Source: Planctomycetota bacterium (GTDB lineage: Bacteria; Planctomycetota; SZUA-567; H5-PLA8). From it: a DNA stretch of 64,000 nucleotides. A program made the translations under genes and the position numbers. The notes beneath the pieces are model-generated. The model ran no database searches, had not been told where the DNA came from, and saw only the letters and a list, made by a program, of their open reading frames with translations. The DNA lies in contig JBBRPR010000026.1 in NCBI GenBank assembly GCA_038227875.1, positions 41,930 through 105,929 on the forward strand, read 5' to 3'. Shown piece by piece: positions 40,125 to 47,178 of this stretch; positions within the stretch are counted from its first letter, which is position 1, and the number at the start of each line of letters is the position of its first letter.

Positions 40125-40964
40125 CTACTTCGCATTCCAGCGCCGAGCCGCCAGCCGATACGCGCGGGGACTCTGCCCGCAGGCGGCTTTGAATAAGCGG
40201 CTGAAATGGAATTGATCCGCGAAGCCGCTACGCTGCCCGACTTCAGCGATCGACGCGTCACTGGCCAGCAGCAACTCCTGAGCGCTCCGCAGTCTCAGCA
40301 TCTGCAGATAGTGCAGCGGCGCATGCCCCGTCGCCCGCCGGAACGTGTCGTGAAAGCGGCTCTCCGATAAAAACACGCTCCGCGCCAGCTGCCCGCGCGT
40401 GACCCGCTCGGCCAGATGAGCCTGCATGTAATCCAGCGCCGGCTGGATGCGCGCGTGTCCTGAAAGCAGCGCCGCCGCGCTCTCCTTCAGCCGCGCGTGC
40501 CGGAGCAGCAGTCGCAGCGTGCGAAAATTCAGCTCCCGGCGCTGCGCAATCGCCGCGAGGCTGTGCGGCTCGGAACTCTGAAGCAGCGCTACTTGTTGCA
40601 CGACCACCGCGCCGATTTCCTCGCCGGTTTTACGCGGCAGCACCAGCGGGATCTCAACGACTTGGAACAAGTCCACCGCGCCCAGCACCGTAAAGCGCAT
40701 ATGCGACCAATGGTAGACCGTTGACGTTCCGGGATCATTGCGCGAACGCTGCAGCGCGTTGCTGGGCACCGCGTAGCCCCCGTGGGGCGGCACATACACC
40801 GGCACACGTCCCTCCAGTTGCATCGTCACGCGACCGCCCGCGGCTTGGCCGATCACCGCGCCGGGATAACGCGTCCAAGGATCGTTCAGACAATGCCGCT
40901 CGACGCCGCAGCGTAGCAACTGAACATCCAGCGACTGTTCCCACGCGGTGAGTGGAACTTCCAT
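40125..40964 (-). CDS. AraC family transcriptional regulator
   Basis: LARSVFLSESRF...GFADQFHFSRLFK...SPRAYR. Confidence 0.93.
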   Translation of the reverse strand: MEVPLTAWEQSLDVQLLRCGVERHCLNDPWTRYPGAVIGQAAGGRVTMQLEGRVPVYVPPHGGYAVPSNALQRSRNDPGTSTVYHWSHMRFTVLGAVDLFQVVEIPLVLPRKTGEEIGAVVVQQVALLQSSEPHSLAAIAQRRELNFRTLRLLLRHARLKESAAALLSGHARIQPALDYMQAHLAERVTRGQLARSVFLSESRFHDTFRRATGHAPLHYLQMLRLRSAQELLLASDASIAEVGQRSGFADQFHFSRLFKAACGQSPRAYRLAARRWNAK

Positions 40965-41079
40965 CGGTTTCTCCGGACAGTACAATCCGACATAAAGTCG
41001 ATATTCGCCACTATGGAATTAATACTGAGAATAGCGCATAGTGTCTCCCGAAGACAACCTTCATTCAGGAGAAAACAGC

Positions 41080-41919
41080 ATGTCCAGTTCAGTTGCAGAA
41101 TACGACACTAAAACAGCCGTGGTGAGTAACGAGGACCGTTTCCTGTTCGACCTGCAGGGATTCATTCTGCTGCGCGGTGTACTCTCGCCGGAAGAATGCC
41201 GGAACTATCTGGGTGTAATCGAAGAACTCGAGAACCTTCCGCACGACGACAAAGCGCGGCGCGAGAAGCTCAACCCGACCGGTCGTCCCAGCCAGCCCAC
41301 GCTCGAAAACAATACGCACTCCAAGCGTTTGAACGGATTGCTGCGCCTCAATTCCGCGTTCGATGCGCTGATCGCACATCCCGGGGTTGCGCCGTATCTT
41401 GAAGCCTTCATGGGGCAACCGCAACTGGTCAACACGTGGTCGATCTCGAAATTCAAAGGCCAGGACAGTGGCGGCTGGCATCGCGGCGTCTCGCCGATTC
41501 AGTACAGCTGCCGCGACGGCAATATACGCAGCGCGATGCTCAACACCGTCTGGTTCCTGACCGATAACGGTCCCGAGGACGGTTGCGTCGTCGCGCTTCC
41601 CGGCGGCCACAAGAGCAACCGCGATCTCGACTGGGGCAAGTATAAGGGCCTGGCCATGCCCGGCGCGCGCCCGATCACCGGCCAGCCCGGCGACGTCTTT
41701 CTCTTCTCCGAAACCGTGCTCCACAACGGCCTGCCCAAAACCACGCCCGGCCGCCGCACGAATCTCTACTACAACTATACCACGCGCGATTTCAACGTGA
41801 TGACCTTCTCGCCCGAGCATAACTTCCACTTCTGCATGCCGCCCTCGGTCCGCGCTCGATTCACACCCAAGCAACTCGAATACACCGAGTGGATGCAGTA
41901 CATGCAAGCAACGGAATAG
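41080..41919 (+). CDS. phytanoyl-CoA dioxygenase (PhyH) family Fe/2OG oxygenase
   Basis: AGGAG RBS; FDLQGF, WHRG, WFLTD, PGGHK, PGDVFLFSETVLHNG. Confidence 0.88.
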   Translation: MSSSVAEYDTKTAVVSNEDRFLFDLQGFILLRGVLSPEECRNYLGVIEELENLPHDDKARREKLNPTGRPSQPTLENNTHSKRLNGLLRLNSAFDALIAHPGVAPYLEAFMGQPQLVNTWSISKFKGQDSGGWHRGVSPIQYSCRDGNIRSAMLNTVWFLTDNGPEDGCVVALPGGHKSNRDLDWGKYKGLAMPGARPITGQPGDVFLFSETVLHNGLPKTTPGRRTNLYYNYTTRDFNVMTFSPEHNFHFCMPPSVRARFTPKQLEYTEWMQYMQATE

Positions 41920-41920
41920 T

Positions 41921-41983
41921 AACGATGAACGATGATTAATGAACGTTGGATAAAAATTCGGAACGCGAAATTTGCGTTCCGAA
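41921..41983. repeat. heptamer repeat (AACGATG) followed by a REP-like hairpin
   Basis: AACGATGAACGATGATTAATGAACG; TTCGGAACGC-GAAATTT-GCGTTCCGAA (41957-41983). Confidence 0.6.
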
Positions 41984-42017
41984 GTTTCATGTGGTCAAAT
42001 GGTGGCTGTAGTTTTTC

Positions 42018-42184
42018 ACAGGGCGACGTGCTTTCATGGAGGACAAGATTATGCGTGCTTTCTGCGCTCCCAACCACGTCCTCCATGTTCGCGCCTGAAT
42101 CCTTCTTACTCTCACCAGCTAAGAATGGCCTGATCGCTCTTGTGAGCGGAGCGCGGCGTGGGGTCACATCCACATCCGCGGCGC
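42018..42184 (+). ncRNA. candidate structured leader or ncRNA upstream of the rbfA-like/rtcB pair
   Basis: perfect 10-bp stem CATGGAGGAC/GTCCTCCATG with outer CAGG/CCTG; CTCAC/GTGAG; GCGG..GTGG/CCAC..CCGC. Confidence 0.35.
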
Positions 42185-42206
42185 ATGCCGCAAGGAGCGC
42201 AGTGTC

Positions 42207-42566
42207 ATGTCGTATGACAAAGAAGAAAAGCGCGGCCAACGAGGCCATCGGGCTCAGCGCATCGAACGCACCGTTGCCGACGTGTTGGAATATGAAATCC
42301 TGCCAGCGCTGGAAAACCCGGCGTTGGAAGAACTGCATGTGTTGCGCGTCGAGGCTTCCAACAACCTCGCGAGCCTGCAGATCGCAATCGTACCCAAACG
42401 CAAGGAAGTTCCGCAACCTCCCGAAGAAATCCAGGCGGCGCTGACCTCAGCAGAAGGCTTCGTCCGCTCGGAACTCGCCGGAATCCTGCGCATCAAGCGC
42501 ATGCCGGTGATCCGGCTGCGCTACATTCCGCTGCCGCTATACGGGGCGGAAGGCGGTGGCGCATGA
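42207..42566 (+). CDS. ribosome-binding factor A (RbfA)-like paralog
   Basis: AAGGAG RBS; RAQRIE...LENPAL...VLRVEASNNL...AEGFVRSELAGILRIKRMPVIRL follows the RbfA pattern. Confidence 0.78.
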   Translation: MSYDKEEKRGQRGHRAQRIERTVADVLEYEILPALENPALEELHVLRVEASNNLASLQIAIVPKRKEVPQPPEEIQAALTSAEGFVRSELAGILRIKRMPVIRLRYIPLPLYGAEGGGA

Positions 42567-43708
42567 AGCAGATCTTCGCGCACCCACAGTTGGTGCCGTT
42601 AAAAATCTGGGCGGAGAAAGTCGATGCGGAGGCGCTCCAGCAGTTGCAGCGCCTCGCGCGTTCGGAGTTGCTCGCGGGGCCGGTGGCCGTCATGCCGGAT
42701 GTTCACAGCGCCGGCGCCGTCTGCGTCGGCACGGTCCTCGCCACGGCGAACGTGGTACTGCCCACGGCCGTCGGGGAGGACCTCGGCTGTGGCATGGCCG
42801 TCGAACGGCTGCCGCTCGCCGCGAGCCATTTCTCGCGGGCGCAATTGGAATCGATCGTCGCAACTGTTCTTAAAGCAGTGCCCGTCGGCCGGCGCAGTCA
42901 CGCCACACCGCGTGAATTTATCCAAGGCAGCGCGCTCAGCACCGGCGCGCTGCAACACGCCGCGGAGTACCTCGGTCCGCGCCAAGTCGGCACGCTCGGC
43001 GGCGGCAACCACTTCATCGAGTTGCAACGGGACGCACACGACCGGCTGTGGGTGACGGTGCATTCCGGTTCGCGCGGCGTCGGCGCGGCGATCGCGTCGC
43101 ATCACGGTCGCGTGGCGGAAGCGAAGTCCGATCGCAAGCTGCCGTTTTTGCGACTCGGTACGTCAGAAGCTGACGCGTTCTGGCTCGACCTGGCGTGGGC
43201 GCTGGCGTTTGCCGAAGAAAACCGGCGTCGCATGCACGCGGCCGTGCGGCGCGTGCTCTCCGCACTGTGCAATGAGCACGTGGAAGCCGCCGAACGCTTC
43301 GACGTCGCTCACAATCTGATCACGCGCGAAGTTCACGGCGGTCGGGAACTCGTGATTCACCGCAAAGGCGCCATGCCTGCCGCGGCCGGCGCGCGCGGCA
43401 TCATTCCCGGCTCGATGGGTACTATCAGCTATATCGTGGAAGGACTCGGCAGCGACGCATCGTATCACTCGTGTTCGCACGGCGCAGGGCGAGCTCTCCC
43501 GCGCGTCGAGGCCCGGCAGCGCATCTCGCCGGCCCAGTTGCGCCGCGAACTTCGCGCCGTCGTGATCCCCGCCGATCCGCGCCTCGTACGCACGCTCGTT
43601 GAGGAAGCGCCCTCGGCCTACAAGCCGCTCAAACGCGTGTTGGCAGAGCAGGCCGACCTGGTCCGGCCGATGCTGCGATTGGAACCGTTGGCGGTGATTA
43701 AAGGATGA
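42563..43708 (+). CDS. rtcB: RtcB family 3'-phosphate/5'-OH RNA ligase
   Basis: MPDVH, GEDLGCGM, GTLGGGNHFIE, HSGSRG, AHN, HRKGA, PGSM, SCSHGAGR, EEAPSAYK. Confidence 0.95.
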   Translation: MKQIFAHPQLVPLKIWAEKVDAEALQQLQRLARSELLAGPVAVMPDVHSAGAVCVGTVLATANVVLPTAVGEDLGCGMAVERLPLAASHFSRAQLESIVATVLKAVPVGRRSHATPREFIQGSALSTGALQHAAEYLGPRQVGTLGGGNHFIELQRDAHDRLWVTVHSGSRGVGAAIASHHGRVAEAKSDRKLPFLRLGTSEADAFWLDLAWALAFAEENRRRMHAAVRRVLSALCNEHVEAAERFDVAHNLITREVHGGRELVIHRKGAMPAAAGARGIIPGSMGTISYIVEGLGSDASYHSCSHGAGRALPRVEARQRISPAQLRRELRAVVIPADPRLVRTLVEEAPSAYKPLKRVLAEQADLVRPMLRLEPLAVIKG

Positions 43709-43720
43709 AACCGAAAGACG

Positions 43721-43761
43721 TCATTTTGACCTCCGTGCCAATGGCACGAAGGTTAAAATGA
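43721..43761. terminator. long hairpin between convergent genes (terminator or REP-like)
   Basis: TCATTTTGACCTCCGTGCCA-A-TGGCACGAAGGTTAAAATGA. Confidence 0.6.
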
Positions 43762-43791
43762 CCCTAGGGCCAACTGGCCCGCGGGTGTTCG

Positions 43792-44412
43792 CTACAGCGC
43801 ACCATCCAAACTCAACTGCCCATATGTCGCCACCTTCGCGTCGCGGACGTTGTCGATCGGAACCGGCGTATCGTTGCGCACTTCCGCCCCGGCAAAGGTG
43901 CATTCGATAATCGCGTTGGACACCGGCAGTCGCTTGAGCACCAATCGCGCGCGCGGCGTCATGCCTGCGATACCCGACGCGGCAATCACGTAACTTTCCT
44001 GATCGGACGTCGCAATCAGCAGCGCCTCGCGTTTTTGAACGGCCTTGGCCGACACAATCTCCGTAATCGCGATCTCTTCAATCCGCTTGGCGCTCAGATC
44101 GGCCTCAAAGCGCGGCTTGGACGTCCAGTTCTGGACCAGCGATGCGTCGCGCGAAAAACGGTAGACGGCGTACAGCGAGACGCTCAGCGAACTCAAATAC
44201 GCCGCGGTCATCGCGAAATCGTTGCCTTTCAGCAGCGCGCGCATCAGCGGGCCGAAGAAGATCATACCCAGCGCGCTGATCGGCAACGCCAGCACCACCA
44301 GCATCATGTAGATGAGGATCTTCGCGGCGGGACCGCTGTTGTCCGGGACGCGATCGGCTTCGATCTTCTGGCGTTCTTCCGGCGTAAAGTTGCGTTCAGT
44401 AATCTTCAGCAT
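43792..44412 (-). CDS. membrane hypothetical protein
   Basis: two TM segments; GC3-rich codon usage. Confidence 0.7.
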   Translation of the reverse strand: MLKITERNFTPEERQKIEADRVPDNSGPAAKILIYMMLVVLALPISALGMIFFGPLMRALLKGNDFAMTAAYLSSLSVSLYAVYRFSRDASLVQNWTSKPRFEADLSAKRIEEIAITEIVSAKAVQKREALLIATSDQESYVIAASGIAGMTPRARLVLKRLPVSNAIIECTFAGAEVRNDTPVPIDNVRDAKVATYGQLSLDGAL

Positions 44413-44521
44413 GCGTATCGAAAACCATACTACCGACGCGGCCCGATTTCGCCACATTGCCTTCACGAGTGCGCATGGTATTGTTCATTTTTTCTCACAT
44501 ATATCGCGCGAGGCAACTCCT

Positions 44522-45305: not shown

Positions 45306-47075
45306 GTGACCGACGCCACGGCCCAGTCCCTCGACGCCAAACGAGACGTACAGCGCATCCTTGCTGAGCGCCTGTATCCGCTGGGCGTGTTGCTGCGTTT
45401 CCGCGTCCGCGCCATCACCAATCAGATCCGTAACATCCGCCGCGAATCGATGTTGAAAATCGTCGTCGTCACCACGCTTGGCGTCGGTTTCTGGGTCGGG
45501 TTGTTTGAACTGTTTCTCTACGGTTTCCAATTCGTCAACGATAACGCCGGCGTCGCGCGGCCGTACTTGATCCACCACATTCTCAGCCTGTTCTTCATGG
45601 CGCTCTCGTTCATGCTCGTTTTTTCCAACGCGGTCATCGCGCTGCAAAATCTGTTCAAGGAGCAGGAGACCGCGTTTCTTTTCTCCCTGCCCGTGCGCCA
45701 CGACACGATTTTTCTCTACAAATTCATCGAATCACTGGTCTTCTCGTCGTGGGCGGTCTTTGCCGCCGGATTGCCTTTGATGCTCGCCTATGGCATCAAG
45801 TCCGATGTCGACTGGTACTTTTATCCGCTCGTGCTGTTGTTCATGCTGCCATTTGTCGTACTCCCCGCCGCGCTCGGAACGCTGCTGGGATTGCTCTTGA
45901 TGGCCATCGTCCCACGGCATGGTTATAAGGTGCTCGGCGCGATGGTCGTGGCGCTCGTCGGCTGCGCGATCTACCTGTACGTCACGATTTTCCACTCGCC
46001 GGCCGCGTACATGAGCGGCTACGGCTCGTCGGAAATCCAGGCCAGCGTGCAGCGCGTGCTCGGCCGCCTGAACTTCACGCAGCACGTCCTTACGCCCAAC
46101 TATTGGATTACCGAAGGACTGCTCCGCGTCGGCGACGCCAAGCCCGACAGCCTCAATGCCGGCGCGCTGTTTTTCGGAGCGTTGATGACCAGTGCGATGT
46201 TCTTCCTCTCGCTGGGTTGGTTCCTTTCCGGCTCGATGTACGCCGCGACATACTCCTTCGCCAGCGGCGGAAGTTCCGTGCGCAGCATCGGCAGAAAATC
46301 GTGGGTCGAATGGTTTTTCGCGCCGGCGTCCGCGCGCTGGCCGCAGATCATGATCCTGGTGGTGAAAGACGTGAAGACGTTTCTGCGCGACCCGACCCAG
46401 TGGTCGCAGGTGCTGATTTTCTTCGGCATCCTTGGGCTGTACATCGGCAACCTGCGGAACTTTTCGTATCCGCTCGATCAGCCCTTCTACCAGAACCTGA
46501 TTTCGTTCCTGAATCTCGGCGCGACCTGCATGACGCTGGCGACGATGACCAGCCGCTTCATTTTTCCCCTGATTTCGCTCGAAGGCCGCCGATTCTGGGT
46601 GCTGGGCCTGGTGCCGCTCGACCGCCGCCACGTGATGATCTCGAAATTCTATTTCGCCTTCAGCGGCTCGCTCCTGCTGGTGGTGATTCTCGTCCTGCTC
46701 TCCAATTACATTTTGCGCGGCTCGACGTTTGTGCTCGGCATCCAGCTCGTCACGGGCGTGTTTATCGCGATGGGCTTGAGCGGCCTGAGCGTCGGCATGG
46801 GCGCGATTTTCCCCAGCTTCAACGAACGCAACCCGTCGAAGATCGTCTCCGGTTTCGGTGGCACGCTGACGCTGATTCTCGCCATCGGCCTGGTGATCGT
46901 GAGCATCATTTCCGAAGGCCTCGTCTGCCACCGCTACCTCGGCCCCATCCCCGACGAAGCCCACCTCAACTGGATGATCATCGCCTCCCTCGCCGGCATC
47001 GCGCTGCTCAACACGCTCGCCGCGTACATCCCCATGCGCTTGGGAATTCGCGCGCTGAGGCAGGTTGAGTTTTAG
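45306..47075 (+). CDS. putative ABC-2 type transporter permease
   Basis: many TMs; ETAFLFSLPV, KDVKTFLRDPTQWSQ, RFIFPLISLEG, GMGAIFPSF. Confidence 0.85.
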   Translation: MTDATAQSLDAKRDVQRILAERLYPLGVLLRFRVRAITNQIRNIRRESMLKIVVVTTLGVGFWVGLFELFLYGFQFVNDNAGVARPYLIHHILSLFFMALSFMLVFSNAVIALQNLFKEQETAFLFSLPVRHDTIFLYKFIESLVFSSWAVFAAGLPLMLAYGIKSDVDWYFYPLVLLFMLPFVVLPAALGTLLGLLLMAIVPRHGYKVLGAMVVALVGCAIYLYVTIFHSPAAYMSGYGSSEIQASVQRVLGRLNFTQHVLTPNYWITEGLLRVGDAKPDSLNAGALFFGALMTSAMFFLSLGWFLSGSMYAATYSFASGGSSVRSIGRKSWVEWFFAPASARWPQIMILVVKDVKTFLRDPTQWSQVLIFFGILGLYIGNLRNFSYPLDQPFYQNLISFLNLGATCMTLATMTSRFIFPLISLEGRRFWVLGLVPLDRRHVMISKFYFAFSGSLLLVVILVLLSNYILRGSTFVLGIQLVTGVFIAMGLSGLSVGMGAIFPSFNERNPSKIVSGFGGTLTLILAIGLVIVSIISEGLVCHRYLGPIPDEAHLNWMIIASLAGIALLNTLAAYIPMRLGIRALRQVEF

Positions 47076-47083
47076 GGAACGGA

Positions 47084-47172
47084 GTCATTGGTCATTTACG
47101 GAGAGCGATAGACAGGCCCTTCGATTTGCCAGCCCGCTCCTCGTAAATGAAAAATGCCCGATGACCAATGAC
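47084..47172. repeat. inverted heptamer repeats (GTCATTG/CAATGAC)
   Basis: GTCATTGGTCATT ... AATGAAAAATGCCCGATGACCAATGAC. Confidence 0.65.
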
Positions 47173-47178
47173 TCCGTT

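Follow-up and report, generated by a model that had tools for sequence, protein, structure and literature searches.

A divergent RbfA paralog overlapping the start of a clade-specific RtcB ligase gene in Planctomycetota: a candidate two-gene RNA-repair module

Why should the gene for a small protein resembling RbfA, the late-assembly factor of the 30S ribosomal subunit, overlap the start of an RNA ligase gene, and what might the two products do together? This question is raised by a 64,000-nucleotide stretch of DNA from a Planctomycetota bacterium (contig JBBRPR010000026.1, positions 41,930 to 105,929 of the forward strand, GenBank assembly GCA_038227875.1), which was analyzed as a whole and is referred to here as the window. 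A preliminary description of the window had reported a 119-aa RbfA-like open reading frame (ORF) whose TGA overlaps the ATG of an rtcB gene, and had proposed that the pair repairs damaged 16S rRNA. The overlap was confirmed as ATGA at 42563-42566, which implies translational coupling between the two genes. The pair comprises the following features:

42192..42197, forward strand: Shine-Dalgarno-like AAGGAG of the RbfA-like gene, 9 nt 5' of its ATG, read from the sequence
42207..42566, forward strand: RbfA-like gene (RbfA paralog), 119 aa, ATG start, assigned from family scans, fold and alignments
42548..42556, forward strand: GGAAGGCGG, Shine-Dalgarno-like site for rtcB, 6 nt 5' of the rtcB ATG, where the RbfA-like gene encodes its Gly-rich C-terminus
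42563..42566, forward strand: ATGA stop/start overlap (RbfA-like TGA at 42564-42566, rtcB ATG at 42563-42565)
42563..43708, forward strand: RtcB-family 3'-phosphate/5'-OH RNA ligase, short form, 381 aa, assigned from a family scan and motif alignment

A search from the ligase side showed how tightly the two genes are associated. A profile built from 13 RtcB sequences was run against 401 genomes of the phylum, which is a fairer test of the pairing than a search that begins with the RbfA-like protein, and yielded 23 matches at 466-595 bits, followed by a gap to scores of 359 bits or less. The 23 top-scoring RtcB genes come from 13 families, and in each case an RbfA-like ORF of the same orientation adjoins the RtcB start, so the expectation that this RtcB clade keeps such a partner across genomes held without exception. 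Three of the genomes with this arrangement (G190, G191 and G373) are closed, with one contig each, and may stem from isolates. At the junctions, 20 of the 23 pairs share a 4-nt NTGA overlap (19 ATGA and one TTGA), two others have longer overlaps of 8 and 17 nt, and a GGAGG-like site mostly lies 6-10 nt 5' of the rtcB start. In the genome G010 (L014/L134, G010:C84), the RbfA-like ORF lacks the usual stop and extends over some 100 codons of rtcB in a different frame; a frameshift, faulty assembly and a genuine long overlap are all possible explanations. Among the 27 next-tier RtcB genes, an RbfA-like ORF was found near one only (L154, among seven returned loci), about 1 kb upstream, while the 20 further next-tier loci featured none within 2.5 kb. 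The 59 ORFs flanking 22 of the loci included no recurrent family; the flanks are thus unrelated between loci and the pair itself is the conserved unit.

The same picture was obtained from the RbfA side, where 40 relatives were collected before a profile search of the same 401 genomes. Among these relatives, the paralog occurs in five of 16 genomes of the same family at 38-52% identity, with an RtcB gene immediately downstream in all five. Over the 401 genomes, close matches scored 159-186 bits, two genomes (G383 and G179) scored 70-77 bits and the rest reached at most 43 bits, mostly resembling canonical RbfA. Beyond the close family, four of 24 loci (L029, L031, L039 and L045) encode longer RbfA-like ORFs of 138-162 aa with an N-terminal extension, which overlap RtcB genes of 370-382 aa. 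In the N-extended partners (L130-L150), some 40 N-terminal residues are conserved (…L..LC.E.GPDDG.DPR… then K..QLC.Q…) and match no family.

A wider scan with the RtcB protein covered the genomes of 185,579 species, and 80 loci were kept. Two of these have a clear upstream RbfA-like ORF: L070, from a Planctomycetaceae metagenome-assembled genome (MAG), and L083, which is labelled delta-proteobacterial. In a third, from an Acidobacteria MAG (L118), the RbfA-like ORF 5' of rtcB (432-894) is split between two frames and could reflect a pseudogene or a sequencing error. PrfH was not matched at any of 89 loci of this RtcB clade and its sister clade. A quick maximum likelihood tree of 93 RtcB proteins placed 12 RbfA-linked RtcBs and that of L118 in one clade (Shimodaira-Hasegawa-like approximate likelihood ratio test support of 95), which splits into two subclades (support 99 and 100) that correspond to the short and N-extended partner types. 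The sister group consists of 77 RtcBs of other phyla, none of which (0/77) has an RbfA-like ORF, and the other three RtcBs of the genome under study, including a PrfH-linked RtcB2, lie on long branches outside the RbfA-linked clade. Members of this clade are only about 40% identical to each other.

The RbfA-like/RtcB association is therefore not due to chance, but is a clade-specific and deeply conserved coupling. It is very improbable that the adjacency is a historical accident without functional meaning, or that the small ORF is not expressed. The marginal Pfam score of this ORF would, taken alone, allow such a reading, but it is countered by the clade-specific association in 23 of 23 loci with its conserved overlap and Shine-Dalgarno-like site, by conservation of the ORF at the protein level down to 38% identity and by a confidently predicted RbfA fold. 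A search for longer homologues found no fused RbfA-RtcB proteins at E ≤ 0.001, which is weak evidence. In a 253-aa metagenomic protein (P0022), an RbfA-like N-terminus is followed by RtcB-like sequence; this appears to stem from a frame error at the overlap.

The ORF at 42207-42566 encodes a divergent RbfA. It scores 35.0 bits (E = 1.9e-8) against the Pfam family RBFA (PF02033), marginally above the cut-off of 34.7, with residues 16-104 aligned to positions 6-89 of the 105-position profile, on which its relatives score 20-43 bits. With 32.3 bits, it falls below the cut-off of 51.15 of the NCBIfam rbfA equivalog TIGR00082. An AlphaFold (AF2) model with a mean predicted local distance difference test score of 79 features the order alpha1-beta1-beta2-alpha2-beta3, in which the KH-like core consists of alpha1 (14-34), beta1 (43-50), beta2 (56-63), alpha2 (72-94) and beta3 (101-106). 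Foldseek ranks 1-17 in the PDB were all RbfA from bacteria or mitochondria, with template modelling scores on the target of 0.63-0.77 for the nine best bacterial matches (ranks 1-9), so that structure prediction and structural comparison agree on the KH-like RbfA fold that had been proposed. A profile from nine close relatives matched RbfA proteins in the PDB at E-values down to 9e-7, and a 30-sequence family profile aligned with residues 7-102 of Escherichia coli RbfA (E about 1e-13 to 7e-13).

Sequence features of RbfA are kept throughout this core: a basic alpha1 (R15 and R18), the DP loop, A82-E83-G84-F85 and a K97-R98-x-P100 loop. The A82-E83-G84-F85 motif aligns with A75-S76-G77-F78 of E. 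coli RbfA and conforms to its pattern of AxG followed by an aromatic residue. This is noteworthy because the 3' end of 16S rRNA runs past AxG and stacks on Phe78 in 30S-RbfA structures: in the cryo-electron microscopy structures with E. coli RbfA (PMC8177701), nucleotides 1531-1533 pass AxG while A1534 and C1535 stack on Phe78. The paralogs stop 10-15 residues past beta3, and the window protein has a Gly-rich end (...GAEGGGA) whose final codons are GAA GGC GGT GGC GCA TGA. As the C-terminal region of canonical RbfA is missing and the equivalog cut-off is not reached, an annotation of the protein as housekeeping RbfA would be inappropriate.

The window ORF is not the only rbfA of its genome, an assembly of 176 contigs (9.3 Mb) with a completeness of 88%. 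A canonical rbfA is encoded at 182307-182597 of contig C3 (G000) and scores 94-95 bits on Pfam; the separate housekeeping copy predicted by the preliminary description therefore exists, although not beside infB as predicted, since it lies downstream of dnaN and dciA. The window protein is 21% identical to this canonical RbfA. Seven of eight other genomes that carry the pair (hereafter module genomes) also have a canonical RbfA of 83-101 bits (G001, G006, G012, G014, G409, G345 and G373), and none was found in the eighth, G010, which is 91% complete. The RbfA-like partner is thus an additional RbfA paralog. Its family is small, with 23 of 1.84 billion representative proteins matching at E ≤ 1e-10 and four at E ≤ 1e-30, while three near-identical homologues were found in a collection of 5.8 billion proteins.

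The 381-aa ligase scores 298.6 bits on the RtcB family PF01139. Its motifs MPDVH, GEDLGCG, GGGNHF, HSGSRG, HRKGA, IPGSMG and SHGAGR align with those of Pyrococcus horikoshii RtcB and are invariant across 13 members of the clade, as are D46/H48, D73/C76, N149-H150, H167, H266, H306 and R310, which match P. horikoshii RtcB motif positions and which we take to be the metal-binding and GMP-histidine positions. The earlier statement that the metal- and GTP-binding motifs are retained is hence upheld by this alignment. In tests against the RtcB2 models (TIGR03073/NF007153), the window RtcB scored 170.2 against a cut-off of 271.8 and 192.7 against 407. Given these scores and the absence of PrfH beside the pair, it is not a member of the PrfH-linked family.

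Besides the RtcB gene of the window pair (contig C26), three further ones are present in the genome, one on C59 next to rtcA, one alone on C102 and one on C3 that is directly followed by a PrfH gene, and none of them has an RbfA-like partner. The C3 RtcB exceeds both RtcB2 cut-offs (449 > 272 and 502 > 407) and the C3 PrfH exceeds its equivalog cut-off (231 > 167), so this is a genuine PrfH-RtcB2 module. The only RTC (rtcA) match of the genome is the one on C59, where the RtcB gene also has a vWA/Ro-like ORF nearby, as judged by eye. No rtcA adjoins the window pair, and rtcR was not itself searched for. The reported absence of rtcA and prfH nearby was correct for the surroundings of the pair; the genome encodes prfH, rtcB2 and rtcA elsewhere.

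What, then, could a dedicated RbfA paralog do for an RNA ligase? Gene structure, fold, paralogy, clade-specific coupling and ligase motifs were established directly, and we infer from here on the binding to 30S, the lesion and the contact with RtcB. The reading we favor, which we judge about equally likely to be right or wrong, is that the genes constitute a self-contained two-gene RNA-repair module in which the RbfA paralog attaches to the 3' end of 16S rRNA on 30S subunits that are free and damaged, and offers the break to RtcB. The paralog and its own-clade RtcB would be made in fixed proportion from one mRNA through stop/start coupling, and the conserved KH surface of the paralog would bind the 3'-terminal 16S nucleotides in the mRNA exit channel of the free 30S subunit. 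On a subunit cut in the 3' minor domain, the paralog would retain the severed 3' fragment, leave the broken 16S ends accessible and bar the damaged subunit from translation. The lesion might be a colicin E3/CdiA-type break at A1493/G1494 or, alternatively, a MazF-type break just 5' of the anti-Shine-Dalgarno region, and RtcB would use GTP to join the 2',3'-cyclic-phosphate end to the 5'-OH end.

Several properties of the canonical proteins are compatible with such a scheme. According to PMC8177701, RbfA binds only to the 30S subunit, within the exit channel for mRNA, and there holds 16S nucleotides 1531-1535 and prevents folding of the linker between helices 44 and 45 (h44/h45; A1502-G1505) and of the top of h44. 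For retaining the short 3' fragment of a cut 16S rRNA and leaving the break exposed, the most suitable factor would be a protein of the RbfA type, and a ligase produced in step with it would then close the break. For the ligase, PMC9304027 describes that free 30S subunits are the only form in which RtcB2 repairs a 16S rRNA cleaved between A1493 and G1494, and that it cannot reach the lesion in 70S ribosomes, for which PrfH is needed to free the subunit; after MazF has removed the 3' end of 16S rRNA, E. coli RtcB can join it on again (PMC5416887). A more specific form of this proposal, which we advance tentatively and hold to be somewhat less probable than its general form, is that the paralog tethers a 16S 3' fragment of about 45-50 nt while keeping the h44/h45 linker unfolded, such that RtcB could rejoin it without a release-factor-like rescue step. 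If so, ribosome repair would have evolved independently a second time, in a system that acts on free subunits and covers lesions or stages beyond those of PrfH-RtcB2, and this would imply that bacteria have repeatedly recruited paralogs of core translation factors as RNA-ligase guides. Re-ligation of 16S rRNA after removal of an intervening sequence was ruled out as an alternative substrate, as the 16S genes of five module genomes are 1519-1558 nt long and match the full Rfam model; the assembly under study features no 16S gene.

The next-tier locus L154 (G244:C77) represents a three-gene variant, in which an RbfA-like ORF (50-469), a SpoU-family methyltransferase gene (469-1395) and an RtcB gene (1402-2610) have abutting starts and stops. 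The RbfA-like ORF encodes 139 aa without a Pfam match and scores 77 bits on the subclade profile, the middle gene scores 68 bits on the SpoU family of RNA methyltransferases (PF00588), and the RtcB belongs to the neighboring clade. The position of an RNA methyltransferase between the partners would fit an RNA target, possibly rRNA.

A number of observations weigh against the proposal of 16S repair. Binding of the paralog to the 30S subunit and to RtcB is putative. A complex prediction for the two proteins from alignments gave a score of 0.00 in two runs without controls, which weighs neither way. The AxG-aromatic motif is not invariant: AEGY is also seen among relatives, and the place is taken by VERR in three close relatives and by ARPR in one, although Thermus thermophilus RbfA likewise has AERR. 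The canonical segment after beta3, with its conserved D-x-S and helix, is missing together with the C-terminal tail. No toxin, immunity or regulator gene recurs beside the pair among the 59 flanking ORFs of 22 loci, and the paralog has no tblastn match in 72,556 plasmids or 50,697 phages; together, these searches rule out a mobile or conflict-associated context. This genome and G006 carry PrfH-RtcB2 as well, so that the two modules would be redundant if they act on the same lesion, and their presence in one genome indicates that they are not simple substitutes for each other. The suggestion that the pair is independent of PrfH is thus supported as gene content, with 21 of 23 module genomes lacking PrfH above the family cut-off, but not by these two genomes, which have both modules. 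PrfH exceeded its cut-off in five of the 401 genomes overall (two of 23 module genomes and three of 378 others), which are too few and too related to be interpreted.

Finally, the paralog type of RbfA also occurs in the two genomes with 70-77 bits, in which no RtcB of this clade was found. G179 (L023, G179:C146) encodes a canonical RbfA in addition to the paralog type, and its best RtcB match reached 72.5 bits in the C-terminal part, whereas the sole RbfA of G383 (L022, G383:C22) is of the paralog type, with 26 bits on Pfam. The ORF that follows in L023 resembles a QueE-type radical-SAM enzyme by eye. The paralog type is therefore not strictly dependent on RtcB and can act without it. This favors a sequential scheme, in which the paralog would be a stress-time 30S assembly or quality-control factor that re-matures subunits, or withholds them from translation, during or after RNA damage, while RtcB repairs RNA independently and the operon is shared for timing. 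Such a role is also in line with the suppression of translation by immature 30S subunits through canonical RbfA, as reported in PMC7145577. Nevertheless, we consider this scheme unlikely, as shared timing would rarely preserve a 4-nt overlap in 20 of 23 loci at about 40% identity, or yield an association of 23/23 compared to 0/77 and 1/27 in the neighboring clades.

Is the ribosome the target at all? The KH-like domain might have been re-used for some other RNA, for instance tRNA halves, mRNA or a small RNA, to which it would bring RtcB. KH domains bind many single-stranded RNAs, the score of the paralog does not reach the RbfA equivalog cut-off, its canonical C-terminal segment has been lost, and one subclade carries the additional conserved segment of about 40 aa. 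However, the entire RbfA core is kept, from R15/R18 of alpha1 through the DP loop and AxG-Phe to K97-R98-x-P100, it aligns with E. coli RbfA 7-102, and the top structural matches are all RbfA rather than generic KH proteins. A non-ribosomal target therefore appears slightly less probable than the sequential scheme.

A role without RNA targeting was also considered, in which the paralog would bind RtcB and promote its guanylylation or turnover in the manner of archease. No archease (PF01951) was found in this 88%-complete genome, and tight translational coupling is typical for enzyme-cofactor pairs. On the other hand, the conserved residues of the family are those common to RNA-binding RbfA, the other three RtcB paralogs of the genome have no such partner, and the archease fold is not known to be related to the RbfA-like fold, which together make a cofactor function improbable.

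Repair of 16S rRNA on free subunits, the reading favored here, can be set against RtcB2-PrfH of E. coli ATCC 25922 (PMC9304027, PMC9223846 and PMC13166195). Both are two-gene operons of a short RtcB and a paralog of a core translation factor, and in both the partner is of a type whose binding site on the small subunit lies near the decoding region, with RtcB2 working on free 30S subunits; for the pair described here, the likeness is drawn from the genes. They differ in that the RbfA paralog is encoded upstream of its ligase, whereas the release-factor paralog is downstream, and in that the window RtcB scores below the RtcB2 cut-offs and is distant in the tree from the genome's own RtcB2. Moreover, the pair has no peptidyl-tRNA hydrolysis function, and could thus act only on subunits that are already free. 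By analogy, it is plausible that the pair shares the logic of PrfH-RtcB2, namely a translation-factor paralog with a dedicated short RtcB.

Other known systems are more remote. Canonical RbfA (PF02033/TIGR00082), a late-assembly factor of the 30S subunit, has the type-II KH-like fold, basic alpha1, DP loop, AxG-Phe and basic loop before beta3 in common with the paralog. The paralog differs in its low identity (about 21%), the absence of the post-beta3 segment and acidic tail, its score below the equivalog cut-off and its coupling to rtcB at all 23 clade members. RtcB-RtcA(-RtcR) and Ro/Y-RNA-linked RtcB would share RtcB ligase chemistry with the pair, judging by the motifs, but no rtcA or Ro gene lies beside it (again, with no search for rtcR). 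Archease-RtcB similarly features a small protein encoded beside RtcB, which here belongs to the RbfA/KH fold family instead, in a genome where archease was not found. Pnkp-Hen1 combines RNA repair with 2'-O-methylation. The variant locus L154 likewise unites a repair enzyme with an RNA methylase of the SpoU family, although its enzymes are unrelated to Pnkp-Hen1 and the arrangement was seen in this one locus only.

No description of an RbfA-RtcB pair was found in the literature, although an earlier mention in the RtcB survey of Burroughs & Aravind (2016) is possible. Titles on RbfA-like proteins, paralogs or homologs concern mitochondrial ribosomes or RBFA, or canonical bacterial RbfA, among those listed. 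To our knowledge, PrfH-RtcB2 is the only ribosome-repair system that has been characterized, and it makes lethal decoding-centre cuts reversible. If a second RtcB clade is tied to another 30S-binding factor, ribosome repair would seem more widespread and varied than assumed so far, and the RbfA fold would gain a role outside biogenesis. With two proteins (119 + 381 aa), the pair would also offer a minimal system for direct tests on cleaved 30S subunits. For annotation, a short RbfA-like ORF that overlaps an rtcB start should not be equated with the housekeeping rbfA.

The surroundings of the pair bear on whether it is transcribed separately, and include the following features:

40125-40985, reverse strand: AraC-type regulator gene, from a family scan
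41041-41919: PhyH-family dioxygenase gene, the directly upstream neighbor of the pair, from a family scan
41957..41983, forward strand: 12-bp G+C-rich hairpin, 38 nt 3' of the PhyH-family stop, terminator-like on both strands
43720..43762, forward strand: 19-bp imperfect hairpin, 12 nt 3' of the rtcB stop, between rtcB and the convergent gene
43792-44466, reverse strand: ORF convergent to rtcB, without an assignment in the family scan

A short-chain dehydrogenase gene is a further neighbor according to the family scan. The preliminary description had given the pair its own ribosome-binding site and a downstream hairpin, which are seen here as AAGGAG at 42192-42197 and the hairpin at 43720-43762. 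The latter has a minimum free energy of -43.7 kcal/mol over a 96-nt stretch (z = -4.9), is not followed by a T-run and was not called by a terminator scan; it is a possible bidirectional terminator. The hairpin at 41957-41983 is likely the terminator of the upstream PhyH-family gene, in which case the pair would be its own transcription unit. With a hairpin on either side, each of which is single-copy in the genome, the pair looks like a separate bicistronic unit. No sigma-70-like promoter was called in 40900-44000, and a search for leader RNAs in 41800-43900 gave no Rfam match at E ≤ 1.

The G+C fraction of rtcB (42400-43800) is 0.65-0.67, somewhat above the 0.55-0.63 of the flanking 5 kb. 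PhyH-family dioxygenase genes adjoin both the RbfA paralog (41041-41919) and the canonical rbfA (L001 135-752, G000:C3) in differing orientations, which is probably a coincidence in a genome with many such genes. Further downstream, at 47074-47178 of the window, lies an approximately 100-nt element whose ends are inverted (…GGAGTCATTGGTCATT … AATGACCAATGACTCC…). Up to 59 genomic matches were obtained for its right end, the rtcB-rtcA pair on C59 is likewise flanked by copies, and the element is probably a miniature mobile element or a repeat similar to repetitive extragenic palindromic (REP) sequences.

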